The position numbers and the translations under genes are program-made. Below are positions 20,920 to 46,211 of a stretch of 64,000 nt of DNA, piece after piece. The notes beneath the pieces are model-generated. The model was not told the DNA's origin and ran no database searches. It saw only the letters and a program-made list of their open reading frames with translations. The number at the start of each line of letters is the position of its first letter. Position 1 is the stretch's first letter. Source of the stretch: Bacilli bacterium (GTDB lineage: Bacteria > Bacillota_I > Bacilli_A > RF39 > UBA660); assembly GCA_017936845.1 (NCBI GenBank), contig JAGBES010000001.1, positions 11,026 to 75,025 on the forward strand, given 5' to 3'.

Positions 20920-22494
20920 GTGATACTTAGAAAACCTTATAAGTTTCTTATTAAAAATTTTAGACTAATTCATATTTTATTAGCAATTGCAAGCATATAT
21001 TTACTTATAAAGACAAATTCAATATTAAGTTTTTTTAATGGGTATTTAAAAGCGTCTGAAACTATTATTGCTAGTGGGACTAGCCTAGAATATTTTAACA
21101 ATTTTATGAATTTATTAATTGTTTTAATATTACTAGGAAATATCTTAATATTAGTTATAATGAAAATGAAAGATAAACCTATAGTTTTTTACATTATTAA
21201 TATAGTAGCTTATATAATAGTTGGTTTTATATATTCGTATGATAGTTCTGTTATACAGAATTTAGAGATAAGTGCGGTTGATATAAGAACAATCAAGTTA
21301 GCTAGTGATTTTACACTTCTATGTTTTATGGGTCAAACCTTAAGTACTATAATATTAATAATTAGGGGAATAGGTTTTGATATTAAAAAATTTGATTTTA
21401 GTGAAGATTTAAAGTTAGATATAACCGAAAAGGATAATGAAGAATTTGAATTTGACTTAAATATAGATAAAAATAAATTTAGAAGAAATATAAAAAAAAC
21501 AGTTAGAAATATAAAATATGTTTATCATGAAAATAAATTTTTAGCTAATATATTTTTTATAGTATTATTAGTAATAATAGGTATAGTTATATTTTTAAAT
21601 AAGGAAGTTTATAATAAAATTTATAATAAAGGGGATATTTTAAAAACAATACAATATACTTATAAATTAGAAGATAGTTATCTTGTGAAGGAAAATTATA
21701 GAGGAATTGATATAACAAATAATTATTTGGTAGTTGCAAAATTAAGTATTAAAAGTAATATAAGTAGTGATATTCAATTTGCTACATCACGTTTACAACT
21801 ACATATTGGTAAAACCGTCTATAATCCTATAACAAACTATAAAAAAGATTTAATTGATTTAGGACAAAATTATATAAATGAATATTTAGATAATAATTAC
21901 AGTGAATATATTTTTGTGTTTGAGATACCTAAATCATATGCTAATAAAAAAATGTATTTAAAGTATAGTGATGTCAATGATAAAAAATATACTTTAAGGT
22001 TAAAGAATAAAAAATTTGAAGATCAAATTGAAATTGAAAGTAAATTAAATGATTATATTAAATTAAATGATCAACTATATAAAAATATTAAATTTAAAAT
22101 TTCTAATTATGAATTAGATAATAAAATAAAAGCAACTTATAATTTTTGTGAAACAAAAGATAAATGCTATGAATCTTATGAATACATTTATCCTACATTA
22201 ACGGATAATTATAATAAAGTAATATTAAAAATAGAATCAGATATTGATTTTAATGACCAAAAAATAAAAAATTTCGATAATATAGCTGATTTCATTGAAA
22301 CATATGGTACTATAAATTATGTTGTAAATAATCAAAAGAAAGAAATGAATACAACAATTAAAGAAGTCAAACCAATTAAAAGTAATCAAAAAGGTGTTTA
22401 CTATTTTGAAGTTTATAGTGATATAAAAAATGCTACACAAATATCATTAGTACTAAATATCAGAAATACAAAATATAAATATGTTTTAAAATAA
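20920..22494 (+). CDS. Membrane protein with multi-TM N-terminus and large extracytoplasmic C-terminal domain (first gene of the island?)
   Basis: GTG start at 20920 sits 6 nt after AGGAGGGG. About 4 N-terminal TM helices, a charged loop and one further TM are followed by a ~290-aa beta-rich domain. No family recognised. Confidence 0.5.
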   Translation: MILRKPYKFLIKNFRLIHILLAIASIYLLIKTNSILSFFNGYLKASETIIASGTSLEYFNNFMNLLIVLILLGNILILVIMKMKDKPIVFYIINIVAYIIVGFIYSYDSSVIQNLEISAVDIRTIKLASDFTLLCFMGQTLSTIILIIRGIGFDIKKFDFSEDLKLDITEKDNEEFEFDLNIDKNKFRRNIKKTVRNIKYVYHENKFLANIFFIVLLVIIGIVIFLNKEVYNKIYNKGDILKTIQYTYKLEDSYLVKENYRGIDITNNYLVVAKLSIKSNISSDIQFATSRLQLHIGKTVYNPITNYKKDLIDLGQNYINEYLDNNYSEYIFVFEIPKSYANKKMYLKYSDVNDKKYTLRLKNKKFEDQIEIESKLNDYIKLNDQLYKNIKFKISNYELDNKIKATYNFCETKDKCYESYEYIYPTLTDNYNKVILKIESDIDFNDQKIKNFDNIADFIETYGTINYVVNNQKKEMNTTIKEVKPIKSNQKGVYYFEVYSDIKNATQISLVLNIRNTKYKYVLK

Positions 22495-22599
22495 GTACTT
22501 ATGAGCTTATTTTTTTTATAAAAAAAGAAAAAAATGTTTTATTTGAATAAATATTGTGTTATAATGATACATGAGAATAAGAAGACTAGGAGTGATATA

Positions 22600-23241
22600 T
22601 TGAAAAAAAAATTAAGTTTTTCTATTACGTTATTCTTAATGGTCTTTTTACCATATAAGGTAAATGCTTTATGTAGTGATTCAGAAATTATAAGATTACA
22701 AAATATAGCAAAAAATATTAATTATAGTTATGAATATAACGAAACAAAAGAAAAGTTTTCTATAACTTTTACAAATTTAAATGACGAAATAATCATAAGA
22801 AGTTCTACCACAGGTAGAAGTTATAATGGTATAAAAGAAATAAAAATAAATGATTTTATATCAGGAAATTATAAATTTAATATATATTCAAAAGATAATA
22901 AATGTACAAAAGATATATTATCAACCAAGTATATTGAATTACCATATTATAATGTTTTTTATAATTCTGAGTTATGTGATGGAATAAATAATTATTCATA
23001 TTGTCAAAAATGGCAAAAAAACAGTGTTAGTTATGATGTGTGGTATTCTAAAGTTACAAAATATAGAAATAGTATAAAAGAAGTAAAAAAAGAAGAAATA
23101 GATAATTCTGGATTATTTGATAAAATAGGTAATATAATAATGAAATTTTATGTAAATTATTATTATATAATTTTGCCTTTAATTATAATAATATTATGTT
23201 CTATTATATATGTTAAAAATAAAAAAGAAGAACTTGTATAA
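22600..23241 (+). CDS. Exported Cys-containing protein with C-terminal TM anchor
   Basis: The likely TTG start at 22600 follows AGGAGTG (the alternative is ATG at 22567). Signal peptide KKKLSFSITLFLMVFLPYKVNA|L, several Cys (LCSDSE, NKCTKD, ELCDGINNYSYCQKW), and a C-terminal TM YYYIILPLIIIILCSIIYV. Confidence 0.5.
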   Translation: MKKKLSFSITLFLMVFLPYKVNALCSDSEIIRLQNIAKNINYSYEYNETKEKFSITFTNLNDEIIIRSSTTGRSYNGIKEIKINDFISGNYKFNIYSKDNKCTKDILSTKYIELPYYNVFYNSELCDGINNYSYCQKWQKNSVSYDVWYSKVTKYRNSIKEVKKEEIDNSGLFDKIGNIIMKFYVNYYYIILPLIIIILCSIIYVKNKKEELV

Positions 23242-23251
23242 GGAGGTAAAT

Positions 23252-26077
23252 ATGAAAAAAAGAATAAATTCTTTAATGATTCTAAGCTTTATTGGAATCT
23301 TTGGATTTTTTGCTTTTTCTAATAGTGTAAAGGCACAACTTTATAATGGTCAAGGTGGAGAAGCTTTGTCTAAGGGTTCTGGATATGCAAGTTGTGGGAG
23401 TACTATTAACTGTCTTTATAATAATAAAGATATTTTACTATTTAAAATATCTTTATGGTATGTTGATAATGGCAGTTTTTCACAAGGAGAAGGATGGAGA
23501 GATTTCTACTATACTAACGAAAAAGGTCATAATTATTTAAATAATCTTTATAGTAATGTTTATTATTTTTCAGAACTTGATAATTGTAAGGCTGGTGATT
23601 ATCAGTGTGCTAGTAATAAGATAAGAGCTTATTATGGTGAAACTGGAGATACAATTGAGGTTACCGATGGAGCCAAAAAAGATATTAACTGGATGGTAAA
23701 TTCATCAAAATCTCAAGATACGAGTGATTTTTATAAAGACATATTAACTAAGGAAAGTGAACTTGCGAGTTCTACTAGTGCAGCTACTAAAGGTTATAGA
23801 ATTTATATAGAACCAGCATTCAATGTAAAAAATGTTAAATTTTCTTCAAATGATACAGCAAGTTTAGCTGGTATTCTTACTGTTAAAGAACTTGCAAAAA
23901 CTTATAATGGAACTTCCTGTAAAGGTGCTCCTAATATAACATCAGGATGCAGTAGTCCACTTTTAGGAAATAAATCTTTAGCTCAAGTATTAAATATTCA
24001 ATTTACTGATACAGGAATATCTAGTCCTAAAGCATGTACATCTATTACACAAGATGAATTGAAAGATTCAAAAAATGGATGCGGGTATAATATTGTTGAT
24101 ATTAGTAATTATGTTACCGGTCCACCATGCTATTCATCAAGTGTTGAAACAACACAAAGTTTAGCTTGTATTAATACAGATCAAAATAATATAGGTAAAT
24201 ATACAGAAAAATATGAAGAAAAATCATGTGATAATGCAACGGAAGAAGAACAAACAAATACAGAATATGGAAAGTTGATTGCAACTGATTCAAATTCTTG
24301 TAAAATTTACTGTATAGAATCAGCAATTGCAAGTTTTCCAGGAAATATTTCTAGAGCTGTTGCTTTAGATAGAATTCCAAATAAAGGTACATATTTTGCT
24401 TGGCCAACAAGATTAAATGATCCTAATGGACGCTACAGTATGAAAATAACAAATAAATTAACTTGTACGGTAGTAAGAGAAAATGATAATTGTAATACAG
24501 AAACACTTATAAATTCAGCTAGTTCAGTTGCAGCTTCAGCTCAAGCAGGAGCTAAATTAACTGCCGGGACAAATAAAAAATTAGATGAATCACTAGTTGT
24601 TGATTTTGAAAGAAAAACTAGTAAAACTGATGTTGGTGATTTTGATGGTAAAGTTGGTAAAAACAAAGTAGTTTTTACTAAGGAAACTTATTTTAAAATA
24701 AGAAGTAATGCTAATAGATACTTTAATAAAAATACCAATGCTGTTACAGATTCTGGTTCTGTATCAAGTATAATAGTTGATAGAGGTGAAGGAGTTGTTT
24801 CGCTAAGTTTAAATGATTCAACTAAGCAAAAATATAATTTGACATTGAGCGACATTAAAATTGGTGTAAATAATAAATTTGGAAGTAAAATATCAGATTA
24901 TACATGTAATTATAGAATAGCTGATTCATCATGCGTATGTCCTGAGGGAACATTAAGAGCTGGAGATTCATTATATGATAAGTTAACTGAGGGAAAAACA
25001 TGCGTAGAATTACAGAGAACAGAATGCAATTTATGTAAATGTCCACCAGATTCAGCTAAAGCTTATGAAGATTATGTGTTAGGTGAAGGATTGGATAGCA
25101 AGGCTTGTAAAGCAAAACAAGAAGAAAAATGTTATAATTATTGTGGTGAAGATAATCCAACTTTCAAAACATGTACTGATGAATATATAGAAAAGGGATA
25201 TACTGAAAAACAAGCCAAAAAAATCTGTGAAGTAGAAGCTTGTCCTAGATACTTCTGTACAGATAGTACAGGAAAAAGCCATGTTGAAGATTTTGAACAA
25301 TGTATGTCATTAGGAAATTCATATAAATCTTGTTATATTCTATATTGCTCTGATGATATATGTATTGATGATATTTGTACAGTATGTACTGAAGATTGTA
25401 AGTGGAAATTACAAAGTTCTAATGTAACTAATACAACAAAAATATCATATGTAAAAACATGTTCAGATGGAGGTATTTGCGATAAAATTGAGTTATCTTG
25501 TCCTGGTGGCGAAACAAATATGAATAATCCATTACCATGTGTTCAATCGCAACTTGGAGTAAGTAATATAACTGAAGCGTTAAATAATGGAACAATAAAT
25601 GCAGGAGACGTTGATAGAGCATTTAATGCTTGTAAAGAAACAGTATGTCCAGGATCTAATCAAAAAATAATATATAGAGTAATAGATTTAAATAATCCAT
25701 TTCCAGGAAAATCTAATAAAGGATTAGTTAGTGGATTTAGTAATGGTGGAAGAGGAAGAAAACCAGGAAGTAATTGGGATTCTGAAGAAATAGTAAAAAA
25801 CAAGATATTAAATGCTAGAGAAGCAAAAGGATATGAATTATATAATAAAGAACCACTTTATGTTATAACATTAACACCAAGTGACATAAAAAATATTAGA
25901 AAATATAATAAAAATAATAAGTATTCAAATTTTGATATGAATTGTACAAATGAAAGCAAAACAAGTAAATGTATAAGTAATTATATACATAAAACATATA
26001 GTAAAATTTTAACAGGTGGAAAGTGTAACAATATTTCAAATGAACAAGAATTTGATAGTTGTTATAATGGAAAATAG
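23252..26077 (+). CDS. Large secreted Cys-rich protein (candidate adhesin / pilus-associated)
   Basis: RBS AAGGAGG precedes the ATG at 23252. Sec signal MKKRINSLMILSFIGIFGFFAFSNSVKA|Q. 941 aa, with no LPXTG and no C-terminal TM. By my count the stretch encoded by ~24900-25655 holds 27 Cys. Confidence 0.6.
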   Translation: MKKRINSLMILSFIGIFGFFAFSNSVKAQLYNGQGGEALSKGSGYASCGSTINCLYNNKDILLFKISLWYVDNGSFSQGEGWRDFYYTNEKGHNYLNNLYSNVYYFSELDNCKAGDYQCASNKIRAYYGETGDTIEVTDGAKKDINWMVNSSKSQDTSDFYKDILTKESELASSTSAATKGYRIYIEPAFNVKNVKFSSNDTASLAGILTVKELAKTYNGTSCKGAPNITSGCSSPLLGNKSLAQVLNIQFTDTGISSPKACTSITQDELKDSKNGCGYNIVDISNYVTGPPCYSSSVETTQSLACINTDQNNIGKYTEKYEEKSCDNATEEEQTNTEYGKLIATDSNSCKIYCIESAIASFPGNISRAVALDRIPNKGTYFAWPTRLNDPNGRYSMKITNKLTCTVVRENDNCNTETLINSASSVAASAQAGAKLTAGTNKKLDESLVVDFERKTSKTDVGDFDGKVGKNKVVFTKETYFKIRSNANRYFNKNTNAVTDSGSVSSIIVDRGEGVVSLSLNDSTKQKYNLTLSDIKIGVNNKFGSKISDYTCNYRIADSSCVCPEGTLRAGDSLYDKLTEGKTCVELQRTECNLCKCPPDSAKAYEDYVLGEGLDSKACKAKQEEKCYNYCGEDNPTFKTCTDEYIEKGYTEKQAKKICEVEACPRYFCTDSTGKSHVEDFEQCMSLGNSYKSCYILYCSDDICIDDICTVCTEDCKWKLQSSNVTNTTKISYVKTCSDGGICDKIELSCPGGETNMNNPLPCVQSQLGVSNITEALNNGTINAGDVDRAFNACKETVCPGSNQKIIYRVIDLNNPFPGKSNKGLVSGFSNGGRGRKPGSNWDSEEIVKNKILNAREAKGYELYNKEPLYVITLTPSDIKNIRKYNKNNKYSNFDMNCTNESKTSKCISNYIHKTYSKILTGGKCNNISNEQEFDSCYNGK

Positions 26078-26088: not shown

Positions 26089-26490
26089 ATGAAAGAATCG
26101 TTTTGGGGAGCTTTGATTATAAGTTTTGGCGTTATTTCGATAATGTTTATATACTTTTTTCAAAATGTTACAAATACAGATCAACAAAATTATAATTTAC
26201 TTAGAGAAACAACAGAAGCAGCAATGTACGATGCAATAGATTATAACGAATATATAACAAATGGAAATGTAAAAATAAATGCAGAGAAATTTGTAGAAAA
26301 TTTTACAAGAAGATTTGCCGAAAATGCTAGTCTTTCAAATACTTATGTTATTGAAATATATGACATAAGTGAATATCCACCAAAAGTTAGTTTATTAGTA
26401 AAATCTACTAAAGATACTAACTTAGCAGGTGAAGTAGTTAATTTTGATGTAACAAACAAGATTGATGCAATATTAGAAACACCATATTAG
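26089..26490 (+). CDS. Pseudopilin-like protein (TadE/TadF-like minor pilin candidate)
   Basis: N-terminus MKESFWG|ALIISFGVISIMFIYFF is a short charged leader ending in Gly followed by a hydrophobic helix. 133 aa, directly upstream of the cpaB-like gene. Confidence 0.45.
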   Translation: MKESFWGALIISFGVISIMFIYFFQNVTNTDQQNYNLLRETTEAAMYDAIDYNEYITNGNVKINAEKFVENFTRRFAENASLSNTYVIEIYDISEYPPKVSLLVKSTKDTNLAGEVVNFDVTNKIDAILETPY

Positions 26491-26557: not shown

Positions 26558-27388
26558 ATGAATAATTTTATGATTTCGTTAAAAAAGTTCTTTAAAAATA
26601 AGAACACAGTTACTATTATAGGAGTAATATTGATTATACTAATTCTAGTTTTTGGTTATAGATACCAAATAAAGAAAAAAGTAAATCCAGTTACTGGTAT
26701 TCCAGTAGCAGCACAAACAATACAACCAAGAACAAAAATAACAGAAGATATGATTACATATATAGATGTAGCACCAGTAGTGCTTCAAAAAGGAGAAGTA
26801 ATTACAAATAAAGCAGCAGTAGTAGGAAAATATAGTAATTACAATACAGTTATTCCAAAAGGAAGTATGTTTTATAATGATACAGTTATAAATGAATCGG
26901 AATTACCAGATTCAGCATTTGTAAATGTAGAAGAGGGACAAGTTCCATATAATTTCCCAGTTACAATTGATAGTACATATGGAAATTCGATTTTCCCAGG
27001 TAATTATATTGATATATATATGAAAGCTGAGAGAAAAGATGGAAAATTAATGGTAGGAAAATTGCTTGAAAATGTAAAAGTTTTAGCAGTTAAAGATTCA
27101 GCAGGAAGACATGTTTTTGAAAATTCTGAAGAATCTAGAACTCCAGCTTACTTAATATTTGGAGTAGAACCAGAAATAAATATTTTACTTAGAAAAGCAA
27201 GCTACATGAATAATTATTCAGTAGAATTATTTCCAGTTCCACATGGAGCAACTGTAAAAGAAGAAGGAACAACAACAGTTACTTCACAAACATTAAAAGA
27301 TTTTATAAATGCAAATACAGTAGCTAATGATGAAATTGAAGATAAAAAAACAACAACTGATACTACAAATACAACAAAACAAGGATAA
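26558..27388 (+). CDS. cpaB: CpaB/RcpC-like Flp pilus assembly protein
   Basis: N-terminal TM is followed by SAF-like and beta-clip segments: VPVAAQTIQPRTKITEDMI, VVGKYSNYNTVIPKGSMF, FPGNYIDIYM, LLENVKVLAVKD, ILLRKASYM. This follows the CpaB pattern (V.VA...I..G..I, vGr....i..G, pGd.VDV, v.VLAv). Confidence 0.7.
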   Translation: MNNFMISLKKFFKNKNTVTIIGVILIILILVFGYRYQIKKKVNPVTGIPVAAQTIQPRTKITEDMITYIDVAPVVLQKGEVITNKAAVVGKYSNYNTVIPKGSMFYNDTVINESELPDSAFVNVEEGQVPYNFPVTIDSTYGNSIFPGNYIDIYMKAERKDGKLMVGKLLENVKVLAVKDSAGRHVFENSEESRTPAYLIFGVEPEINILLRKASYMNNYSVELFPVPHGATVKEEGTTTVTSQTLKDFINANTVANDEIEDKKTTTDTTNTTKQG

Positions 27389-27393
27389 GATAA

Positions 27394-28674
27394 ATGAATG
27401 ATTCAATGTTTTCCCAAATTGATTTTGGACCATTAGATGATTATTTAAAAAATGATGATATTACTGATATTTCATATAGTAATAACGGTCAAGTTTGGGT
27501 AAAAACCTTATCAAAAGGTATATATAGAGTTGATAATGAAGCTGTAAACAATGCATTTATGGAGAAGTTAGCATTTCAATGTGCTAATGTTATGGGTAAA
27601 ACATTTAATATGGCGCATCCATTTCTAGATGCAGAGGGAGCAGAGTTACGTCTTAATTTTGTTCATGAATCTATAGCTAGAAATGGTATAGCTGTGTTAA
27701 TTCGTAAAACACCAGCAAAGATTAGATTAGAAAAAGATAAATTGCTAAAGGAAGATTACCTTTCTTTGGATATACACGATTTTCTAATTTATTGTGTTCA
27801 GGGGCATTGTAATATAATTGTATGTGGAGAAACAGGTTCGGGTAAAACTGAGTTTGTAAAATACTTGGCAGCACATACAAAAGAAGATGAAAAATTAATT
27901 ACAATTGAAGATACTTTGGAATTACATTTAGACCGTATATTTCCTCATCGTGATATAGTTGCGATGAAAACAAATAATATAGCATCTTATTCTGATGTTT
28001 TAGTAACATGTATGAGACAAAACCCTAAATGGATATTACTTTCCGAAGTTCGTAGTGCAGAAGCAGTGTTAGCAGTAAGAAACTCTATTTCATCTGGACA
28101 TTATATCTTGTCAACAATACATGCTGATAAAGCTTCAAGTATTCCTAATCGTATGTATAGTTTACTTGAAACAAATCAGGATATAGATCAATTTTTGAAA
28201 TCAATTTATAGATATATCCAATTAGGAGTATATATAAGAGGATATCAAGATAAAAATACAAAACAATTTCACCGTGAAATTGCAGAAGTAACTGAATTTT
28301 ATGTTACAGAGGATAATAAAGCAGAGTATAATACAATTTATAAGAAAACAACAACAGGAAAAGTTGTAAGAAAAAGTCCATCTAAATATTTGATAGATTA
28401 TTTAGATGCTCAAGGTGTAATTTTACCAAAAGATATAATAAAAGAAGGAGAAACAATTGATCCTTTAATGAGTCAAAATAGTTCACAAATAAATCAAAAA
28501 AACCAATTAAATCAATCATTAAATAATCAAAATTATCAGACCCAAAATAAACAAAATATTCAAATGAATAATATTTATCAAAATAAACAAGGAATTAATT
28601 ATAGTCAACAAGTTTATAGACAAGTACCAAATGGTACAACAAATACTTTAAATCAAGACTTAAATAAAGCATAA
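27394..28674 (+). CDS. tadA: CpaF/TadA-type secretion ATPase (VirB11/GspE superfamily) with Q/N-rich C-terminal tail
   Basis: Walker A CGETGSGKTE, Asp box ITIEDTLEL, Walker B ILLSEVRSAEA, His box STIHA. The last ~70 aa are Gln/Asn-rich low complexity. Confidence 0.85.
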   Translation: MNDSMFSQIDFGPLDDYLKNDDITDISYSNNGQVWVKTLSKGIYRVDNEAVNNAFMEKLAFQCANVMGKTFNMAHPFLDAEGAELRLNFVHESIARNGIAVLIRKTPAKIRLEKDKLLKEDYLSLDIHDFLIYCVQGHCNIIVCGETGSGKTEFVKYLAAHTKEDEKLITIEDTLELHLDRIFPHRDIVAMKTNNIASYSDVLVTCMRQNPKWILLSEVRSAEAVLAVRNSISSGHYILSTIHADKASSIPNRMYSLLETNQDIDQFLKSIYRYIQLGVYIRGYQDKNTKQFHREIAEVTEFYVTEDNKAEYNTIYKKTTTGKVVRKSPSKYLIDYLDAQGVILPKDIIKEGETIDPLMSQNSSQINQKNQLNQSLNNQNYQTQNKQNIQMNNIYQNKQGINYSQQVYRQVPNGTTNTLNQDLNKA

Positions 28675-36551: not shown

Positions 36552-36875
36552 ATGAATAATGGTAGATTTTTAATACCAGCAAATTCTAAAAAATCATTGT
36601 TGATTTTTGGGATATTTAATAAATTTGATGCAATATTATTTGGAACAGGTATTGGTATAACGTTAATATTAATGATGATATTACCTATAGCAGATATAGT
36701 ATGGGCAATAGTTGCTATTGCCCCTGTTGTAATAACAGGATTTCTTGTTTTCCCTGTTCCAAATTATCATAATGTTATGACAGTTTTAATAGAAACTTGG
36801 CAATTTTTTACATCAAGGCAAAGATTCATTTGGAAAGGTTGGTGTTTTACTAGTGAAAAAGACGATAAAGAGTAA
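36552..36875 (+). CDS. VirB3/PrgI-like small membrane protein
   Basis: 107 aa. N-terminal MNNGRFLIPANSKKSLLIFGI... is followed by two TM helices. It lies immediately upstream of, and overlaps, the VirB4 N-terminal ORF. Confidence 0.6.
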   Translation: MNNGRFLIPANSKKSLLIFGIFNKFDAILFGTGIGITLILMMILPIADIVWAIVAIAPVVITGFLVFPVPNYHNVMTVLIETWQFFTSRQRFIWKGWCFTSEKDDKE

Positions 36876-37398: not shown

Positions 37399-39179
37399 TG
37401 GATATAAAAGCGCAAATAGCTCCTAAAGGACTAGAATTTAAACCAAATCATTTTATAATAAGTGATAAATATGCTACTATTTTAACAGTTATATCTTATC
37501 CTAAAATAATTTCACCAGGGTACTTATCATCGCTTACAAGTATGTCTGGAATAAAAGTTGTTATAAAACACATTCCAGTACCATTTAGTATGATAAGTAA
37601 AATGTTAAATAAAGAAATATATGCTTTAAAACAAAGATATCAAGAAGAAAATGATAGAACTATTCAAGAAAGAATTAGACAGGATTATGAATCATTAGAA
37701 GTATTTATATCACAACTTGCAGCTAATCAATCAAAAATATTTGATTTTCAAATGCATATTATGATAACTGCTGATAGTGAAGATGAATTAAATAATAAAA
37801 AAATACAAGTAAGAAGTTATCTAGAAGCAATGGAAATGCGTGCATTTCCACTTAGATTTGAACAAGAAAAAGTATTAAAATCAATTTTACCTATATTTGA
37901 TAAACAAGATATAGAAGATAGAATAGGAACGCCAATTCCAGCTCCTACAATAGCAGCTATGTATCCTTTTATTTTTGATAGTATAAAAGATCCTGGATTA
38001 TCAGCATTATTAGGTGTAGATTTTTCAGGTGGAGTTATTCTATTTAATCAATTCCTATATCAAATAAAAAAAGAACACAATAGAAATAATGCTAATTTAA
38101 TTATTTTAGGTACAAGTGGTAGTGGAAAAAGTACTGCAGCTAAGTTGTTGATTAGAACTCATATAAGGAACAATTGTCAAGTTGTTATAATCGATCCAGA
38201 AGGTGAATTTGAACCAATGGCTAGAAGATATAAGGGCGATTTCATTGACTTAGGTAAAGGTGGAGAATATGGTATGATAAATCCACTTGAAGTAATAATA
38301 GATGCTGATGAAGATGAAATACAAGGTGGACTTGGATATACAGTTTTAACAAGAACATTACAAAGTATAAAAGCATTTATGAAGTACTATGATCCTAATA
38401 TAGAAGAAGATGTTCTTAATATGTTTAGTGAAATAGTTCAAGAAACATATAGAAGATTTGGAATGAATTTTGATACAGATTTTTCAAAATTTGGACCTGA
38501 AGATTATCCTACATTTAAAGATGTTTATGCTACTATAAAGGGTAGACTTGCATCAATGGTAGAAAAAACACATGAAAAAGATGTTATGGAAAGACTTGAA
38601 CTTAAAGTAAGACCAATAGTTAAAGAACTTAAGTACTACTTTGATGGGCATACGACAATAAGACCACAAAGTACATTTATAGTATTTAATATAAGAGAAC
38701 TTATGAATGCTGATACTAATATAAAGAATGCGTTGTTCTTTAATATATTAAAATATGCATGGGGATTAACTCTTGATAAAAGAGTAAATACAATATTAAG
38801 TGTTGATGAAGCACATGTGTTATTATCAGGAAATAATACTTTAGGTGCTGATTTCTTAGCTCAAATTCAAAGACGTGCTAGAAAATACAATACAGGTACA
38901 ATTATAATAACTCAACAACCAAGTGATTTTAGTGACCCAGGTGTTATAACACAAGGAAAAGCAATATTTGACAATGCTTCTTATTACTTAGTTATGGGTC
39001 TTAAAAAACAAGCTGTTGAAGATTTATCTAAATTAATAGATTTAAATGATAATGAAAAAGAAAATATTAAAAGATACAATCAAGGTGATGCATTATTCAT
39101 TTGTGGTAGTAGAAGAATGCAAATTAATATAATTGCTACTGAACAAGAACTAGATTCGTTTAGTGGTGGAGGATTTTAA
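37398..39179 (+). CDS. virB4: VirB4-family T4SS ATPase, middle and C-terminal ATPase domains
   Basis: Walker A LGTSGSGKST and Walker B ILSVDEAHVLL. The N-terminal IAPKGLEFKPNHFIISDKYATILTVISYP matches the VirB4 pattern d.iaP.s..f......g.y.r.l.v..yP. Confidence 0.88.
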   Translation: MDIKAQIAPKGLEFKPNHFIISDKYATILTVISYPKIISPGYLSSLTSMSGIKVVIKHIPVPFSMISKMLNKEIYALKQRYQEENDRTIQERIRQDYESLEVFISQLAANQSKIFDFQMHIMITADSEDELNNKKIQVRSYLEAMEMRAFPLRFEQEKVLKSILPIFDKQDIEDRIGTPIPAPTIAAMYPFIFDSIKDPGLSALLGVDFSGGVILFNQFLYQIKKEHNRNNANLIILGTSGSGKSTAAKLLIRTHIRNNCQVVIIDPEGEFEPMARRYKGDFIDLGKGGEYGMINPLEVIIDADEDEIQGGLGYTVLTRTLQSIKAFMKYYDPNIEEDVLNMFSEIVQETYRRFGMNFDTDFSKFGPEDYPTFKDVYATIKGRLASMVEKTHEKDVMERLELKVRPIVKELKYYFDGHTTIRPQSTFIVFNIRELMNADTNIKNALFFNILKYAWGLTLDKRVNTILSVDEAHVLLSGNNTLGADFLAQIQRRARKYNTGTIIITQQPSDFSDPGVITQGKAIFDNASYYLVMGLKKQAVEDLSKLIDLNDNEKENIKRYNQGDALFICGSRRMQINIIATEQELDSFSGGGF

Positions 39180-39200: not shown

Positions 39201-41177
39201 ATGAATGATGAAGAATTAGAAGAAATAGAAGAAGTAGAAGATGATTCATTAAACGATAGTTTTGAAAGAGGATATAATACTTCAAGTAATACAGTTGATA
39301 AAGCTATAAATTATTATAATGAATATAAGAATAATCAAAAAGCACAAGAAGCTAATTTAAATCATGATATGCAAGATACTGTCAATAATAATTTAAATCA
39401 AAATATTTCTACAAATAACTTAAATCAAGTAAAAAATTTAAATAATAATCAAAACACATCTAATAATGCTAATGATTTAGTAATGAAAGATAGAATAAAT
39501 TCATTAAAAAATGGTGGAAATGAAGCTACAAAAGAGGCAATTAATAAAGGTGTAAGTAATGCTAGTTCAAATGCTGGGTTACAAGCTCAAATTGCTTCAT
39601 CTGCTAAAAATATATCTGATGATATGAGACAACCTACAGTTGATAAAGAAGGTAACGAATTAGATGGTATAGATGCAGCTAAACAAAAGGGGTTAGATTT
39701 TTCAAAATCAGTTGGTAGAGAAGCAGGTAACATAGCAGGTGAAGTTGTTTCAGACTATTTTACTGCTGCAAGTGGTGGTTTATCTCAAGTATTCAAACCT
39801 GTAGTTAAAGCAGTAGCAGCTAAAACTAGTGAAATAGCAACAGCGCATGCAACTAAACAACTTTATGCAATAATTGGTATTATTTTCGGAATAATCATTT
39901 TGCTTATCTTATCTGTTTTATTTCTTTCTTTTTTTGCAAGTGAAAATTTAGGTGGTGGAGGTTCAGAAAGTGTTAGTTATGTTGCAGGATATGAAAAATG
40001 TTCTTCAATTACTGTTTCAGGATTAGGGACTTATTCACTTGAAGATTATGTTGCAGGTGTTGTTGAACATGAAGCATATAAAGATGGTGGTATTGAAGCA
40101 TTAAAAGCTCAAGCAGTAGCAGCTAGAACTTATGCTATAAATTCTACAAAAAATTGTACAACTTCAATTGGAAATTCACAGGCATCCCAAACTTTTTCAG
40201 CAAATCCATCTGAAATATCAAAGCAAGCAGCAAATGAAACAGCTGGTCAAGTATTAACATATGATGAAAAAGTTTTTTCAACTATGTATGATTCTTTTTG
40301 TTATAATGATAAGGATTGTCCGGATGCTGTAAAAAATGATGATGGAACATATTCTGTTACATATAAGAAACTTCCAAATAAAGAGACACATACAATTACT
40401 TTGAGTGACACAAAACAATATTCTAGAATTGTTGAAGGTGGTGGTCATGCATCAGGTATGAGCCAACTTGTATCTTATCAAATGGCTGCTTCAGGTAAAA
40501 AGTATGATGAAATTTTGAAATTCTTTTATTCAAGTAATGTTAAAATATCAAGTATTGTTAGAAAAAGTTCGCCAGGAACATTGGGAAAATTTAATGGAAG
40601 CTTTAATATAAGAACTTCTAAACCTTTATGGCTTAATTCACCTGAAAATAATTATTATAATCAAACAATAAATGGAAGTAACTGGTTTCAATGTGTTTGG
40701 TATGCTAAAGCAAGAGCATATGAAATTTTAACTACAATGACAAAAGCTAATGAAACAAGAAGACAAACTGCAATAGAAGCTTTATTAAATGCTCATGGTC
40801 ATGGATCACATTGGTATAATAATGCTCAAAATGATGGAAGTTTGTCTATATTTTCGTCAAGTGATGACTATACAAAACCTAGACCGGGAGCAATGGTTTC
40901 ATGGAAATGGAATTCATCAGGATGCATAAGTTATTATGGTCATAATTGTAGTAATGATAGTGAAAACTATGGTCATGTAGCAATCGTAGAGTCTGTAGAT
41001 GAGACAAAAAAAACTGTTGTTATATCAGATGGTTGGTATAGATGTGCTTCTTGGAATAATTATGACTGTTTTGGGTTTAGATCGAAAGAATACACTTATG
41101 ATTATATCAATAAATTTGGTGGTAATTATATATTTTTAGGATATGTTTATTTGACAGATTATGTTGGAGGATCTTAA
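39201..41177 (+). CDS. Membrane-anchored cell-wall hydrolase: SpoIID/LytB-like domain + CHAP domain (VirB1 functional analogue)
   Basis: Acidic and Asn-rich N-terminus, one TM (LYAIIGIIFGIIILLILSVLFLSFF), a SpoIID-like segment (YVAGVVEHEAY...EALKAQAVAARTYA) and a C-terminal CHAP pattern (WFQCVWYAKARAYE ... GHVAIVESV). Confidence 0.75.
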   Translation: MNDEELEEIEEVEDDSLNDSFERGYNTSSNTVDKAINYYNEYKNNQKAQEANLNHDMQDTVNNNLNQNISTNNLNQVKNLNNNQNTSNNANDLVMKDRINSLKNGGNEATKEAINKGVSNASSNAGLQAQIASSAKNISDDMRQPTVDKEGNELDGIDAAKQKGLDFSKSVGREAGNIAGEVVSDYFTAASGGLSQVFKPVVKAVAAKTSEIATAHATKQLYAIIGIIFGIIILLILSVLFLSFFASENLGGGGSESVSYVAGYEKCSSITVSGLGTYSLEDYVAGVVEHEAYKDGGIEALKAQAVAARTYAINSTKNCTTSIGNSQASQTFSANPSEISKQAANETAGQVLTYDEKVFSTMYDSFCYNDKDCPDAVKNDDGTYSVTYKKLPNKETHTITLSDTKQYSRIVEGGGHASGMSQLVSYQMAASGKKYDEILKFFYSSNVKISSIVRKSSPGTLGKFNGSFNIRTSKPLWLNSPENNYYNQTINGSNWFQCVWYAKARAYEILTTMTKANETRRQTAIEALLNAHGHGSHWYNNAQNDGSLSIFSSSDDYTKPRPGAMVSWKWNSSGCISYYGHNCSNDSENYGHVAIVESVDETKKTVVISDGWYRCASWNNYDCFGFRSKEYTYDYINKFGGNYIFLGYVYLTDYVGGS

Positions 41178-42020: not shown

Positions 42021-42413
42021 ATGCAAAGAGAAGAAATACTACACAATGAAGATAATGAAAAAATGATGTATAAATTTAAAAATAAAGAATGTTATATGCA
42101 ACAACATGGTCCATTTTTATTTTTAAATGATGTTTCTAATGAATATTCAAATTCATGTGAATCTAGAAAATTTTATAGATGTGCATGTTTAAAATGTGGA
42201 AGAATAGGTACTTTTCAGATGAACGTAAGGGATAGAAGAAAAACCATATATACAAATAAGACCATAGGTTTAGAAATACTACAAGATTATTATGATTTAA
42301 GAAATGAATTATTAGAACTAATAAATAATAATTCACTAAAAACAGAAATTAAAATACAAGAAATTAATGAAAGATATAAAGTAGAAAAAGAATTAAAAAA
42401 AATAAAAAGATAA
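42021..42413 (+). CDS. Hypothetical small protein with CxxC motif
   Basis: 130 aa, soluble, with CACLKCG and a basic C-terminal coiled coil. No family recognised. Confidence 0.35.
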   Translation: MQREEILHNEDNEKMMYKFKNKECYMQQHGPFLFLNDVSNEYSNSCESRKFYRCACLKCGRIGTFQMNVRDRRKTIYTNKTIGLEILQDYYDLRNELLELINNNSLKTEIKIQEINERYKVEKELKKIKR

Positions 42414-42458
42414 ATTTGTATTAAAATTACAAAAACAACTTATTTTAAAGTTGTTTTT

Positions 42459-43811
42459 CTATTTTGATATAAAAATTCCTTTATAATACTTCCAAGCTAA
42501 TACTTTAAATACTAATTTATCAATAGTATCCTCACTTAATTCATTATCTTTAATAGCATTTTTAATTTCATTAAAACTTTCTTCATAATTGATTGTTATA
42601 ATTAAATTATTTCCAGCTAATAATGCTTTTAAATTTTTATTATCAATATTATTTAGGGCGTTCATATCTAAATCATCTGTTATAATAACACCTGTAAAAT
42701 TTAAATCATCTCTAAGAATATTGTGGGTATTAATAGATAATGATGACGGATTAGAATTATCTATAGAAGTTATTATATTATGGCTAACTAAAATAGCTTC
42801 AGCACCTGCATCTATTCCGACTTTAAAAGGAGGAATATCTATAGATAAAATATCATCATAGGATTTAGATGAAGTAGAACTTCCTGCATGAGTATCACTA
42901 TTACCACCATAACCAGGAAAATGTTTTAAAGTGTATGATACATTTGTTCCTTTACTAGCTTCTATTACTATTTTAGCATATTCTTTTACTTTAGAAGTAT
43001 CTTGTTTCAATGTTCTTTCGTAGATATAATCACTGGAATTAGTTGAAACATCAACTACAGGAGCTAAATTAACATTAAGACCTAATGAATATAATATTTC
43101 ACTTTTATATTTTGTGTCTTCTTTAATTTTTTCAAATCCACCATTATTATATAGTTCACTAGAAGATTTGAAAGGTTCATTTACTAATTTGGGATTACTA
43201 CTAACTCTAATAACTTTACCACCTTCTTCATCAACTGCAGTAAGTAAAGGTATACTAGAATTATTTTGTAATTTATCTATCATAGTTATAACTTCATTTT
43301 TAGTTTTATTTTTAAAATCTTTTTCATAAAAAACAAATCCACTAAATTTATATTTTTTTAAATCTTCTATTTGATTACTTGATGGATATCTTACTAACAA
43401 TAATTGGCCAATTTTTTCATCTAATGATAATTCTTTAAGTTTATTATAAGCCATAACATAATAATCACTAAAAATACCATTATCTAAGTAACTATTAGGT
43501 ATACCATTATTAGATATTGTTTCTTTTGTTTTTTCATAATTAATTACTTTACAATGTTGTTCATGGTTTTCTTTATCAATAACACCAGAATATTTAATAA
43601 TTATTTTATCACCTATATCAATATCATGTTCTTTTAAATTGAAAGTATAAATAATATCATTATCATCTTGAACAGTTATACTATCATTTTTAATACTTAA
43701 TACTTTACCAGTTAAACTATTTGTATCTTTTTTTTCTTTTAAATTAATGCTTAAAGTAATAGTAGTTAGTAAAATAAAAATAAAAGTTATAAATAAAAAT
43801 TTCTTTTTCAT
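42459..43811 (-). CDS. Exported glycoside hydrolase family 3 (NagZ-like beta-N-acetylhexosaminidase)
   Basis: N-terminal signal/anchor, a small beta-domain, then a GH3 N-terminal domain with LKHFPGYGGNSDTHAG (KHFPGHG..D.H motif) and VITDDLDM. Confidence 0.8.
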   Translation of the reverse strand: MKKKFLFITFIFILLTTITLSINLKEKKDTNSLTGKVLSIKNDSITVQDDNDIIYTFNLKEHDIDIGDKIIIKYSGVIDKENHEQHCKVINYEKTKETISNNGIPNSYLDNGIFSDYYVMAYNKLKELSLDEKIGQLLLVRYPSSNQIEDLKKYKFSGFVFYEKDFKNKTKNEVITMIDKLQNNSSIPLLTAVDEEGGKVIRVSSNPKLVNEPFKSSSELYNNGGFEKIKEDTKYKSEILYSLGLNVNLAPVVDVSTNSSDYIYERTLKQDTSKVKEYAKIVIEASKGTNVSYTLKHFPGYGGNSDTHAGSSTSSKSYDDILSIDIPPFKVGIDAGAEAILVSHNIITSIDNSNPSSLSINTHNILRDDLNFTGVIITDDLDMNALNNIDNKNLKALLAGNNLIITINYEESFNEIKNAIKDNELSEDTIDKLVFKVLAWKYYKGIFISK

Positions 43812-43994
43812 AATTTCACCTATTTAATAATATTAAAACTATTTAAAAATATGATATTACTTATATTTAAATATAAGTAATATTTTTATTATAATCAAAT
43901 ATTTTCTAAATATATATTTTAATTTAAAAATAATGTTTATTTAATAAAATTTATGATATAATAATTTTAGTTTATTTCTATGGAGGTTATATTT

Positions 43995-46187
43995 ATGAAA
44001 TTAAAATTTAGAGCAGAACCTAAAGATATATTGATTTTTGTAATCTTTTTAATTTTTTGCTTTTATATCGTATCTATTGGAGTATTAAATATAATGTCAA
44101 TATTAGAAGATGGTACTCTTCATGGTTTAAATCCATTTCCAATATTTACTTCTGATAGTTTTATACTAGCAATGATTATTTTTATAGCAATTTTAATATT
44201 TGCTTTTTCTAGTGTTTCATCATACTTTTTTGAAAGAGAAAAAGGTGTTGGAATAGCTGTAGGTAAAAAAGATGAAAAAGGTTATTCACGTTGGTGTAAA
44301 GATAAAGAAATGAGAAAAGCAAGTGATATTGTCGTTATAAAACCAACTGACGATAATATTCCAAAAGGTGGTATTCCAATTTATAATGATGGGAAAGAAG
44401 TTTGGATTGATACTGGTGGATATCATAATATGATAATAGGATCTACTGGTAGTGGTAAATCTGCTGGTATTGCTTTTCCATATATATATTCTATGGCAAA
44501 AGCTGGAGAATCAATGATTATTACAGATCCAAAAGGTGAACTTTTTAAAGGAACTGCTAAAGAACTTGAAAAAAGAGGATATAATATAATAATATTAAAC
44601 TTTCGTGAACCTGAGAAAGGTAATTGTTGGAATCCTTTTTCTATACCTTATAAACTTTATCAACAAGGAAATACAGATAAGGCTATAGAATTACTTGAAG
44701 ATTTAGCTAAAAATATTTTATATGATGAAAATAATAAAGGGCAAGATCCATTCTGGGAAAATACATCTGCAGATTATTTTGCTGGACTTGCATTTGCCCT
44801 ATTTCAAGATGCTAAAGAAGATGAAGTCAATATAAATAGTATTAATTATATGGCAACAGTAGGTGAAAATAAAATTGGTGGAACTACATACATAAAAGAA
44901 TATTTTAGCAATAAACCTACAACTTCTACAGAAAGCATAAAAGTTAACGCTACAATTACAGCTCCAAATGAAACAAAAGGAAGTATTTTATCAGTATTTA
45001 ATCAAAAAATACAATTATTTTCTTCTCGTGAATCTTTATCTGAAATGTTATCACATAGTGACTTTGATATGGAAGATATTGGTAGAAAAAAAACTGCTGT
45101 ATTTATAGTAATACAAGATGAAAAGAAAACATATCACTCACTTGTTACAATTTTCCTAAAACAATGTTATGAAACATTAGTTAGAGTTGCACAAGAAAAT
45201 CCAGGCGGTAAATTAAAATATAGAACTAATTTCTTACTAGATGAGTTTGCAAACATGCCACCTTTAAGTGATGTAGATGCTATGGTATCCGCAGCACGTT
45301 CAAGAAATATAAAACTGTCATTTATTATTCAAAACTTTTCACAATTAAATGATGTTTATGGAAAAGAAAAAGCAGAAACAATTAGAGGTAACTGTGGGAA
45401 TACAATTTATTTATTAAGTACAGAGCTTGCTGCTTTAGAAGAAATAAGTAAAATGTGTGGAGAAGTTAAATCTAAAAAAGATGATAAAACAGATTCTAGA
45501 CCACTAGTTACAGTAACAGATCTTCAAAATTTAAAAGAAGAAGAAGGATTGATTCTAAGATCAAGAATGCGTCCATTTAAAACCAAATTTAAATACCATT
45601 TTAAAATTAATTGGGGGATGACACAAGAAGAAAAAGAATATCCTGTAAGAGAAAAACAACAAGTAAAAATCTTTGATTTAAAATCTTTTGTAGAAGAACA
45701 AAGAGAAAAGAAAATAAATGAAATGTTAAATGGAAATTCATCAGAATTAAAAATGCCAACCCAAATGCCAGGAGGGTTTCCTCCACCAGGTTTATTTGGT
45801 ATGAAAGAAAAATCAAACAATAGTGGTGGATTTAATGTAGATGACTTAGTAAAAAGAATAGACGCTAAAATAGCTGAACTAGAAGAAGAAGAAAGAAAAG
45901 AAAAAGAAGAACAAGAAAAGAAAAATTCTAAAAAATCAACTGTAGAAAAAATAGAAGAAAAACCTAAAAAAGATAATAATAAAGTTGAAAATTCTGAAAA
46001 AGAGATTGAACATCCAATTGAAATAAGTAATAAAAAAGAACCAATAAAAGAAGAAATATTTAATGATGAAATAGTTGAAGATGAAATTATATCAGATGAT
46101 TTTATTGATACAAAAATAACTTATGATGAAGATGAAATTACTGATGATCAATTCTTTGATGATTTCTTTAGTGATGATGAAGAATAA
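43995..46187 (+). CDS. virD4: VirD4/TraG-family type IV coupling protein with acidic C-terminal tail
   Basis: Two N-terminal TM helices, Walker A IGSTGSGKSAG, ITDPKGE, Walker B FLLDEFANMPPL. The C-terminal ~150 aa are Glu/Lys/Asp-rich. RBS GGAGG precedes the ATG at 43995. Confidence 0.88.
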   Translation: MKLKFRAEPKDILIFVIFLIFCFYIVSIGVLNIMSILEDGTLHGLNPFPIFTSDSFILAMIIFIAILIFAFSSVSSYFFEREKGVGIAVGKKDEKGYSRWCKDKEMRKASDIVVIKPTDDNIPKGGIPIYNDGKEVWIDTGGYHNMIIGSTGSGKSAGIAFPYIYSMAKAGESMIITDPKGELFKGTAKELEKRGYNIIILNFREPEKGNCWNPFSIPYKLYQQGNTDKAIELLEDLAKNILYDENNKGQDPFWENTSADYFAGLAFALFQDAKEDEVNINSINYMATVGENKIGGTTYIKEYFSNKPTTSTESIKVNATITAPNETKGSILSVFNQKIQLFSSRESLSEMLSHSDFDMEDIGRKKTAVFIVIQDEKKTYHSLVTIFLKQCYETLVRVAQENPGGKLKYRTNFLLDEFANMPPLSDVDAMVSAARSRNIKLSFIIQNFSQLNDVYGKEKAETIRGNCGNTIYLLSTELAALEEISKMCGEVKSKKDDKTDSRPLVTVTDLQNLKEEEGLILRSRMRPFKTKFKYHFKINWGMTQEEKEYPVREKQQVKIFDLKSFVEEQREKKINEMLNGNSSELKMPTQMPGGFPPPGLFGMKEKSNNSGGFNVDDLVKRIDAKIAELEEEERKEKEEQEKKNSKKSTVEKIEEKPKKDNNKVENSEKEIEHPIEISNKKEPIKEEIFNDEIVEDEIISDDFIDTKITYDEDEITDDQFFDDFFSDDEE

Positions 46188-46211
46188 ACTTAGGAAAATC
46201 CTAAGTTTTTA
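46187..46211 (+). terminator. Intrinsic terminator after virD4
   Basis: AACTTAGG-aaaat-CCTAAGTT hairpin followed by a T-run. Confidence 0.7.

Follow-up and report, generated by a model that had tools for sequence, protein, structure and literature searches.

A chromosomal, lineage-wide relative of pLS20-type conjugation machinery in gut Bacilli, with a module that resembles a type IV filament assembly system

We asked whether a 25-kb gene cluster that combines filament-like assembly genes with a Gram-positive type IV secretion system (T4SS) is a mobile element or a fixed part of its host's chromosome. The cluster lies at positions 20884-46187 of a 64,000-nucleotide stretch of DNA (the window; G+C ∼23%) from a metagenome-assembled 'Bacilli bacterium'. 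It comprises 23 open reading frames (ORFs), all on the + strand and tightly packed, as the original prediction, made from the sequence of this DNA, had described them; the sole break in the co-directional run is at 42021-43811, where a 130-amino-acid (aa) ORF and a minus-strand GH3 gene are found. The prediction had called the cluster an island that joins a complete Tad pilus module to a T4SS, and had proposed that the pilus could be the contact organelle of the T4SS or, alternatively, that the T4SS is domesticated, as mobilisation functions are missing. With moderate confidence, we read it as a chromosomally fixed, vertically inherited and domesticated relative of the mating-pair-formation machinery of pLS20-type plasmids, in which the envelope machine and the coupling protein have been kept and no genes for DNA processing or self-mobility adjoin. 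The cluster has probably been co-opted for another cell-to-cell function. Our literature search turned up no description of this chromosomal cluster in gut Bacilli of the kind studied here, but coverage of the literature was incomplete and novelty is thus not proven.

The distribution of the cluster speaks to this question most directly. When one genome per GTDB species was scanned, 291 matched, and the best 80 of these 291 were fetched as loci. In these best 80 genomes VirB4 is 80-97% identical, and all of them are uncultured animal-gut metagenome-assembled genomes (MAGs) labelled Bacilli, Tenericutes or Mollicutes, with one Candidatus Fimihabitans (placed by NCBI in Mycoplasmatota incertae sedis). 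VirB4 also has >7000 homologues in a metagenome protein collection, the best 120 of which are all 84-99% identical and 593-595 aa long, and some cluster-bearing contigs reach 1.17 Mb. Gene order was compared by tblastn of every window protein against the 80 loci, where flanks of 10 kb limit the reach; presence is counted as the number of loci with a gene out of the loci that reach that far (Table 1). The cluster was found with conserved order in all 80 species genomes examined. The first part of this invariant order runs CpaB, ATPase, TadB-like, TadC-like, pilin-like, two minor pilin-like genes and a 328-aa gene, and the second VirB2-like (at least one copy), VirB6, VirB3, VirB4N, VirB4C, a variable hydrolase with a lipoprotein, and VirD4. 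The ATPase, TadB-like and TadC-like genes were present wherever the 10-kb flank reaches them. In contexts centred on TadC homologues the block always opens with a ∼525-aa membrane protein (20884 in the window) and the genes upstream of it differ, in line with the predicted boundaries. Since the cluster is lineage-wide, 'island' is the wrong word for it.

Divergence within the cluster is graded: the ATPases share ∼83% identity, VirD4 ∼59% and the surface parts 33-43%. Directly after VirD4 and on the same strand, 45 of the 80 species loci carry rmuC (for example locus L012, 17784-18854, Pfam RmuC E 2e-56), and beyond it lie DUF2238, DedA/VTT or rhodanese genes and housekeeping membrane proteins. 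Pairwise identities of VirB4 and VirD4 correlate with those of rmuC (rho 0.43-0.51), and VirB4 correlates with VirD4 (rho 0.63). The window and locus L003, its closest relative, have lost the VirD4-rmuC neighbourhood; in both, sodA, a PBP gene and efp lie downstream of VirD4. Together, the conserved order, the graded divergence and the correlation with rmuC indicate a vertically inherited chromosomal locus rather than a recently spreading island.

Next to this stands the lack of mobility genes, which the prediction had reported and which a wider search bore out. Domain scans of all ORFs between 16 and 47 kb and of the 20 largest ORFs elsewhere in the window revealed no relaxase, integrase, DDE transposase, replication or partition domain; the products of these 20 are an agr-like system, GerABC, a restriction enzyme, RhuM, an EssC-like ATPase and housekeeping enzymes. 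Relaxase and integrase genes were absent within ∼10 kb across 87 loci; primase, SSB, partition and DDE transposase genes were likewise found neither there nor in the tested window ORFs. Searches by phmmer with MobP2, MobQ and replication-relaxation proteins were negative in the window and the 87 loci, and a TraA query gave no match. Flanking direct repeats were not found either (the search returned AT-rich chance matches), as had been predicted, and the sole tRNA genes of the window are at 6.4 kb, with none adjoining the cluster. The absence of a linked relaxase argues against self-transfer, and we do not take the cluster to be a self-transmissible element.

Could the cluster instead be the transfer module of an integrative and conjugative element (ICE), one very successful in this lineage, with a relaxase and an integrase that are encoded beyond the window or that, as in mycoplasma ICEs, cannot be recognised? 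We give this a small but appreciable chance, as VirD4 is conserved, the upstream neighbours vary between species, the characterised relatives are all on conjugative plasmids, and, among NCBIfam models, VirB4 and VirB6 score best against two mycoplasma ICE families, Mbov_0397 and Mbov_0396. However, these models score under their cut-offs (353.7 versus 590 bits for VirB4, 28 versus 70 bits for Mbov_0396), and the integrase, transposase, relaxase, primase, SSB and partition genes, the flanking repeats and an adjoining tRNA are all missing in the regions searched. Moreover, 45 species share rmuC as their downstream flank, divergence is graded and tracks this flank with no near-identical copies across species, and variable presence was not seen among the 80 species loci. 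The cluster does resemble the mycoplasma ICEs in these best models, in having no recognisable relaxase and in its related host lineage (Bacilli/Mycoplasmatota); it differs in that no DDE transposase of the CDS22 type was found with it. Mycoplasma ICEs are not known to have a CpaF or T2SSF module.

That module does have counterparts on plasmids. A tblastn search of the ATPase against 72,556 plasmids returned 709 records at E ≤1e-15 (Bacillus 543, Listeria 45, Enterococcus 31), more than half of which are predicted to be conjugative. On a pLS20-like plasmid of B. subtilis natto, a thioester adhesin is followed by a small protein, the ATPase, proteins of 267 and ∼245 aa and further small proteins, then by VirD4 (CD1115 family), a p028-family VirB6, DUF5592, a 192-aa protein, VirB4 and a hydrolase, with a MobP2 relaxase further on. 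E. faecium p32 and a B. velezensis plasmid have the same layout. A Priestia plasmid has DUF5411 and a SAF protein, then, after one further gene, the ATPase, T2SSF and others, adjoining a relaxase and VirD4; on a cold-seep Mycoplasmatota plasmid, VirB6, VirB3, VirB4N and VirB4C are followed by genes for a SAF protein, an AAA ATPase, CpaF and T2SSF. Hidden Markov models (HMMs) of the window families matched pLS20 gene 36 (E 3e-4), gene 37, the ATPase (E 5e-48), gene 38 (E 5e-15, with the broad HMM), a fragment of gene 39 (E 2e-5), gene 48, VirD4 (E 4e-68), and gene 52, VirB4 (E 6e-34). In particular, the DUF5411 protein of the window is homologous both to pLS20 gene 36 and to the Priestia DUF5411 protein.

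The gene string of the window is thus like that of the pLS20-type operon (genes 34-54) and of the p32, B. velezensis, B. thuringiensis and Priestia plasmids. Shared at one end are a large adhesin, a small DUF5411-like protein, the CpaF/VirB11 ATPase, two polytopic proteins of ∼260-300 aa and small N-terminally anchored proteins; shared at the other are VirB2-like, VirB6, DUF5592/VirB3, a split VirB4, a wall hydrolase and a CD1115-type VirD4, and the succession of VirB3, a ∼190-aa and a ∼630-aa protein is also common to the window and pLS20. The proteins of the two sides are ∼25-32% identical. They differ in that VirD4 follows the hydrolase in the window but precedes VirB6 on pLS20-type plasmids, and in the CpaB/SAF gene, which is found in the window and on the Priestia and zrk4 plasmids whereas none is annotated on the pLS20-like plasmid. 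The window also lacks a set of genes that pLS20-type plasmids have, those for a MobP2 or MobQ relaxase, primase/TOPRIM, SSB, partition and regulation (Rap/Phr/Rco). As the same composite occurs on Gram-positive conjugative plasmids, the juxtaposition of Tad-like and T4SS genes is not unique to this genome. In these gene strings the ATPase, the pair of platform-like proteins and the small genes for pilin-like products are an integral, ancestral part of a large Gram-positive conjugation family, which does not fit the proposal of a Tad pilus as an add-on to a monoderm T4SS without pili, after the manner of R64 or PAPI-1. The alternative proposal of a domesticated T4SS without mobilisation functions fits the conserved order in 80 genomes, the co-divergence with rmuC and the lack of relaxase and integrase genes in 87 loci.

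The plasmids also bear on whether the two modules form one system. A promoter-like site stands at the module boundary (32610-32638), and an operon of CpaF, GspF and DUF5411 has been described in Clostridia with no link made to a T4SS (Miller et al. 2022, PMC9523054), as might be expected if an adhesive Tad pilus and a T4SS were two independent systems side by side. We think this very improbable: wherever a locus spans the junction (∼60/61) the two parts adjoin in unchanged order, and they co-occur on unrelated plasmids of several genera, sometimes with VirD4 between or before them.

We then asked whether the first module resembles a filament assembly system closely enough to be called one. The predicted ATPase matched VirB11 at 118 bits and the TadA type at 103 bits, both under the NCBIfam cut-offs, and in the PDB it matched the VirB11 protein HP0525 at 73.5 bits and CpaF at 67.7 bits. 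By these scores it falls in the CpaF/VirB11/FlaI clade and is no closer to CpaF than to VirB11. The claim of a CpaF/TadA ATPase holds in the sense of a secretion ATPase of this clade; being equidistant, the ATPase alone settles nothing about a filament. The assignment of the CpaB/RcpC-like protein, in contrast, held in that its RcpC match exceeds the cut-off (Table 1); its TIGR03177 score of 38.9 bits is under that model's cut-off, and the family HMM matches the SAF protein of the Priestia plasmid (E 2e-36).

More depends on the two proteins predicted to be TadB/TadC-like platform components. Neither had a direct match in Pfam, NCBIfam or the PDB (with PDB profiles from narrow and broad alignments), and homologue searches in the protein collection were filled by close relatives at ≥67% identity, with no distant Pfam-annotated matches. 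A chain of homologues and profile-profile comparison nevertheless linked both to T2SSF. The TadB-like HMM matches, over its full length, a Priestia koreensis plasmid protein (E 2e-13) that NCBI names 'type II secretion system F family' and that itself matches Pfam T2SSF with E 3e-5 (24.2 bits against a cut-off of 25.2), and the TadC-like HMM matches the gene adjoining this Priestia T2SSF gene (E 4e-16) as well as a 266-aa protein of E. faecium p32 (E 6e-6). Among 1.84 billion representatives, a profile search picked out 677 clusters, including TadB-TadC fusions of ∼500 aa in which the TadB-like profile matches the N-terminal half (E ∼1e-10) and the TadC-like profile the C-terminal half (E ∼1e-21); they share the two-domain architecture of PilC and GspF, and in one of them the N-terminal half matches Pfam T2SSF (E 0.0015). 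When compared by hhalign with bona fide TadB/TadC (six sequences from the Tad loci of Vibrio harveyi, Chlorohelix and Microvirga), the broad TadB-like alignment scored 95.7-97.5% and the broad TadC-like alignment 94.3-96.1%, while the controls, five unrelated membrane families of this locus and a reversed reference, all remained at ≤11%. The link was seen only with the broad alignments (A6 and A7) and not with the narrow within-clade ones (A2 and A5), and the score of A7 against A6 was discarded as trivial because A6 contains fusion proteins. The AlphaFold2 model of the TadC-like protein (30-sequence alignment) was poor (predicted local distance difference test, pLDDT, 61), and a Foldseek search with it gave no significant match, with the cytoplasmic domains of OutF and TcpE at E 7-9. 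We conclude that the two putative platform proteins are related to T2SSF by remote homology and not by a match at the family threshold.

The small proteins of the module were examined in the same way. Four of them (the 77-aa protein, two of ∼140 aa and the DUF5411 protein) open with a short leader, M(K/R)E..G, and continue into a hydrophobic helix. In a 58-sequence family alignment of the 77-aa protein the N-terminus MKEAAG|EANMTV(I/V)TI(V/I)LIA is near-invariant, whereas the C-terminus is variable and Cys-rich. Of the predicted 'Flp-like pilin', the leader ending in Gly was thus borne out and the Flp EY motif was not. The two minor pilin-like proteins are paralogues (31% identity) for which TadE-likeness had been claimed; however, a TadE domain was found in none of 56 family members and DUF4320 in 5 of the 56, plasmid homologues included, and phmmer searches with Flp and TadE/TadF queries gave no match. 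The 328-aa protein, described previously as a TadZ-like degenerate ParA ATPase, showed no ParA, CbiA or AAA_31 match in 25 family members, hhalign against TadZ gave 3%, and its AlphaFold2 model from the single sequence was unusable (pLDDT 31). With TadZ and TadE unsupported, no Flp EY motif and no prepilin peptidase found, 'complete Tad module' overstates the case. Nevertheless, the fusions, the bridge protein, the hhalign scores and the pilin-type leaders converge, and we conclude from them that the first module is type-IV-filament-like and belongs with the assembly systems of the Tad/archaeal branch.

The opposite view would be that there is no filament: the ATPase would be a true VirB11 on the T4SS channel, and the membrane and small anchored proteins would be T4SS-specific parts distantly like T2SSF and pilins. 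The ATPase does score slightly higher against VirB11 than against CpaF, direct matches to T2SSF, Flp or TadE are missing, a prepilin peptidase was not found (a weak test), and the pLS20 literature reads gene 37 as a putative VirB11 and genes 38-41 as 'unknown' (PMC8557374). Yet VirB11 is not known to occur with paired T2SSF-like proteins, a CpaB/SAF protein and four proteins with M(K/R)E..G leaders, a set that is the signature of type IV filaments. Given this set, the hhalign scores with clean controls, the RcpC match over its cut-off, the leaders and the fact that NCBI itself labels the Priestia and zrk4 platform homologues 'T2SS F family', we see a small chance for the view without a filament.

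The channel and coupling genes were largely identified as predicted (Table 1). The second VirB2-like copy is fused to a Cys-rich ectodomain as described, the VirB2- and VirB6-like assignments resting on weak matches, and that of VirB3 on HMM matches to plasmid homologues. The two VirB4 ORFs overlap in TAATG. The split is kept in all loci that reach it and on plasmids: an N-terminal gene of ∼180-295 aa and an ATPase gene of ∼600-650 aa directly follow a DUF5592/VirB3-like gene on the pLS20-like plasmid, E. faecium p32 and the Mycoplasmatota plasmid (L099, 10099-12899; L090, 18324-21734; L100, 14632-17764), which makes it an old family trait and not a frameshift. The hydrolase and lipoprotein carry the predicted domains and lipobox. 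The position of the hydrolase is constant and its catalytic domains are swapped among species, from SpoIID+CHAP to SpoIID+M23+NlpC/P60 or glucosaminidase+CHAP (L083-L087, ∼19.5-20.8 kb). VirD4 exceeds the CD1115-family cut-off, again as predicted for a coupling protein.

The conservation of VirD4 speaks against a further possibility, a machine for DNA uptake or exchange like Helicobacter ComB or archaeal Ced/Ted, in which the pilus-like module would capture DNA and the T4SS channel import it. Type-IV-filament modules commonly serve uptake, the cluster is chromosomal and lineage-wide with no linked relaxase, the DNA-recombination gene rmuC follows VirD4 in 45 species, and the contigs suggest small genomes of ∼1.2 Mb or more. 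Still, known T4SS-based uptake systems are without VirD4 (review PMC12857230), whereas it is here in every locus that reaches it, the link to rmuC may be plain synteny, and no linkage to ComEC or DprA was seen in the loci. We consider uptake quite improbable; a universal VirD4 argues for export.

Table 1. Features of the cluster, with the supporting matches and, where counted, the number of loci with the gene out of the loci reaching that far
Feature	Position	Strand	Evidence and remarks	Loci with gene
536-aa polytopic membrane protein, first gene of the conserved block	20884..22494	+	No Pfam match; a 524-526 aa homologue opens the block in other species	
235-aa protein, hydrophobic segments at N- and C-terminus	22534..23241	+	No Pfam match; 213 aa as called elsewhere; conserved second gene in loci L083-L087	
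∼940-aa secreted Cys-rich protein	23210..26077	+	No Pfam match; homologues of 939-1028 aa in relatives	
DUF5411 protein, pilin-type leader (MKESFWG, then hydrophobic helix)	26089..26490	+	Pfam DUF5411 E 4e-50; leader conserved	
CpaB/RcpC-like SAF-domain protein	26558..27388	+	Pfam RcpC 29.7 bits, cut-off 28.8; TIGR03177 CpaB E 6e-10	
CpaF/VirB11-family secretion ATPase	27394..28674	+	Pfam T2SSE E 2e-25	
TadB-like platform protein, one T2SSF-like domain	28686..29591	+	Remote homology (HMM, bridge protein, hhalign)	
TadC-like platform protein	29591..30385	+	Remote homology (HMM, hhalign)	
Promoter-like motif TTGATA-17-TATAAT, 5' of the 77-aa pilin-like gene	30409..30437	+	11/12 consensus matches	
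77-aa major pilin-like protein	30476..30709	+	Leader ending in Gly; no Pfam match	
Minor pilin-like protein 1	30731..31147	+	Leader MK(E/Q)xIG, then hydrophobic helix	59/60 (minor pilin-like genes)
Minor pilin-like protein 2	31160..31594	+	Leader MREAxG, then hydrophobic helix	59/60 (minor pilin-like genes)
Conserved 328-aa cytoplasmic protein	31612..32598	+	No Pfam, NCBIfam or PDB match	60/61
Promoter-like motif TTGACA-17-TATTAT	32610..32638	+	11/12 consensus matches	
VirB2-like protein with two transmembrane (TM) segments	32650..33027	+	T4SS_pilin E 8e-4, under cut-off	61/61
Cys-rich ectodomain fused to VirB2-like C-terminus	33105..34271	+	VirB2-like query matches inside, 41% identity; N-terminal part varies between species	
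VirB6-like polytopic protein	34289..36538	+	TrbL_4 E 4e-5, Mbov_0396 family E 1e-6, both under cut-offs	66/67
VirB3-like small membrane protein (DUF5592-like)	36552..36875	+	Family HMM matches p32 DUF5592 (E 2e-4) and zrk4 plasmid homologue (E 2e-9)	75/75
VirB4 N-terminal domain, own gene (VirB4N)	36853..37398	+	VirB4_plasma positions 98-276, E 3e-15	78/78
VirB4 ATPase, C-terminal part (VirB4C)	37398..39179	+	VirB4_plasma 353.7 bits, CD1110 family 185.6 bits	
Cell-wall hydrolase, SpoIID and CHAP domains (VirB1 role)	39201..41177	+	Pfam E 8e-17 and E 2e-12	
Lipoprotein with C-terminal TM segment	41180..41869	+	Lipobox FTGC; homologue in 39 loci, 24-37% identity	
Local insertion outside the conserved block: 130-aa ORF and GH3 glycosidase	42021..43811	+ (130-aa ORF), - (GH3)	GH3 E 3e-51	
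VirD4 coupling protein, acidic C-terminal tail	43980..46187	+	T4SS-DNA_transf E 7e-59; CD1115 family (NF045973) 313 bits, cut-off 250	64/64

How might such a machine work? We infer from the parts list that the ATPase and platform proteins would build a short fibre or piston of pilins across the thick wall. This fibre may present or support the ∼940-aa Cys-rich protein and so bring a target cell into contact. That protein is probably an adhesin, judged by its position, because it occupies the slot of the Tie thioester adhesin or the SpaA-like or Ig-like protein of the plasmids, just upstream of DUF5411 and the ATPase. The SpoIID+CHAP hydrolase would open the peptidoglycan wall, and VirD4 would pass a substrate to a VirB4-powered channel of VirB6, VirB3 and VirB2-like proteins, in contact-dependent export. 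Co-option for a function that benefits the host is indicated by the lineage-wide presence together with the absence of a relaxase nearby. By analogy with the relaxase-less T4SS of Patescibacteria, that function could be the delivery of proteins or chromosomal DNA to neighbouring cells.

The T4SS of Patescibacteria (e.g. Southlakia epibionticum) is indeed the closest parallel to a fixed, domesticated conjugation machine: it is monoderm, MPF-FATA-like, chromosomal and lineage-wide in uncultured bacteria (PMC12102498, PMC12857230). A relaxase is mostly missing there, multiple VirB2-like paralogues occur in pilin arrays, type IV pili operate next to the secretion system, and epibiotic growth requires the T4SS (PMC12102498, PMC12857230). 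The window cluster is likewise chromosomal and lineage-wide and has no linked relaxase in the window and the loci. Extra VirB2-like paralogues, in part on the opposite strand, are found a few kb past VirD4 in loci L013, L025, L027, L028, L040 and L041, and resemble the Patescibacteria pilin arrays (PMC12857230). On the other hand, Patescibacteria are another phylum, their type IV pilus genes form a separate system whereas here the filament-like module is inside the T4SS gene string, and essentiality and an epibiotic lifestyle have been demonstrated in Patescibacteria.

Several observations weigh against the domestication of a filament-bearing conjugation machine. Because rmuC is linked to the cluster, the co-divergence test is not independent of linkage, and the upstream flanks vary between species. 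The relaxase search covered 64 kb of this genome, so a relaxase may lie elsewhere in it; a conserved VirD4 with an acidic tail is compatible with DNA transfer, as is the fact that the closest NCBIfam VirB4 model is that of mycoplasma ICEs. As for the filament, the T2SSF link is remote (no direct Pfam match, a hhalign reference of six sequences, a poor AlphaFold model), and the 77-aa protein has neither the Flp EY motif nor Glu5 and no Flp Pfam match. No prepilin peptidase was found in the window or the 87 loci by phmmer with Vibrio TadV, a weak single-sequence test, and a fibre has been seen for no member of the family. Finally, the paper on the pLS20 family states that no pilus components are encoded (PMC8557374). 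Each of the alternatives discussed above is, for its part, contradicted by at least one strong observation.

In textbooks, pLS20-type Gram-positive conjugation machines are 'pilus-less', and how donor and recipient come into contact in Gram-positive bacteria is an open question. Against this background we tentatively put forward a linked pair of claims, to which we give clearly less than even credence: that these 'pilus-less' machines build a type-IV-pilin fibre by means of their so-called VirB11 and its 'unknown' neighbours, and that an order-level group of small-genome gut Bacilli has fixed the hybrid machine as a core organelle. By the parallel of the essential Patescibacteria T4SS, such an organelle would serve contact-dependent delivery of effectors or DNA, episymbiosis or species-wide chromosomal exchange. 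The remote homologies suggest that a large Firmicutes conjugation family carries a type-IV-filament assembly module; it would reach from the pLS20 family and enterococcal plasmids of ∼53-71 kb to plasmids with related ATPases, including those of B. anthracis of ∼95 kb and 181 kb. Separately, a relaxase-less copy that is fixed in at least 291 species of uncultured gut Bacilli would make these bacteria, next to Patescibacteria, a second lineage to have turned a conjugation machine into an organelle common to all its members, and it could explain how abundant uncultivated small-genome gut bacteria interact with their neighbours.

Two other known systems invite comparison. With Tad (type IVc) pili the module shares a CpaB/RcpC-like protein, a TadA/CpaF-family ATPase, two single-domain T2SSF-type platform proteins and a small major pilin gene right after the platform genes, followed by two paralogous minor pilin-like genes; it differs from them in having no Flp EY motif, no TadE-domain match, no demonstrable TadZ and no prepilin peptidase in the locus, and in sitting within a T4SS operon. 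The thin pilus of IncI1 R64 and the type IVb pilus of PAPI-1 likewise tie a type-IV-pilus-type machine to a conjugative T4SS, and the R64 pilus stabilises mating in liquid. These are, however, diderm systems in which a separate pil operon (PilQ ATPase, PilR platform, PilS pilin, PilU peptidase) has been added to a complete relaxase-bearing T4SS, unlike the present case of a monoderm host, an integral and ancestral module and no relaxase found.

As a side observation on the platform fusions, a gut metagenome contig (locus L095, 4738-11497) encodes VirD4, GGDEF and HD-domain proteins, a T2SSE ATPase and a single 498-aa TadB-TadC fusion, with MuF_C and DUF5688 genes upstream, which suggests a mobile element with a link to c-di-GMP.

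The remaining features of the cluster concern its insertion and its promoter-like motifs. A homologue of the insertion was found in none of the 80 related loci, and in locus L003 the lipoprotein gene is followed directly by VirD4. The 130-aa ORF of the insertion carries Cys motifs. It also contains one copy (42269-42300) of a 32-nucleotide direct repeat with 91% identity, the other copy of which is at the 3' end of an rlmD-like gene (17197-17228); both encode LEIL(K/Q)DYYD, and the repeat may be due to chance or be a leftover of the insertion event. The two motifs that had been predicted as the modules' own promoters do exist and rank among the top three promoter-like sites of a 14-kb stretch; in this AT-rich DNA, however, such sites are overall no commoner than in shuffled sequence.

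Elsewhere in the window, a 1515-aa protein (55247-59794) with at least two FtsK/SpoIIIE domains has ∼92-aa ORFs on either side (54757-55035 and 60056-60334). The region 54757-60334 resembles an EssC ATPase with WXG-type small proteins and, ∼9 kb past the downstream end of the cluster, may represent a type VII secretion locus. An agr-like quorum-sensing set (LytTR response regulator, GHKL histidine kinase, and AgrB on the minus strand) lies at 2323-5158, and the chromosomal region upstream of the cluster also encodes a MvaI/BcnI-family restriction endonuclease (6692-7435, -) and a RhuM-family protein (13951-14937, +). GerAA, GerAB and GerAC genes are present at 9909-13667 and indicate a spore-former, despite the 'Tenericutes' labels on relatives.

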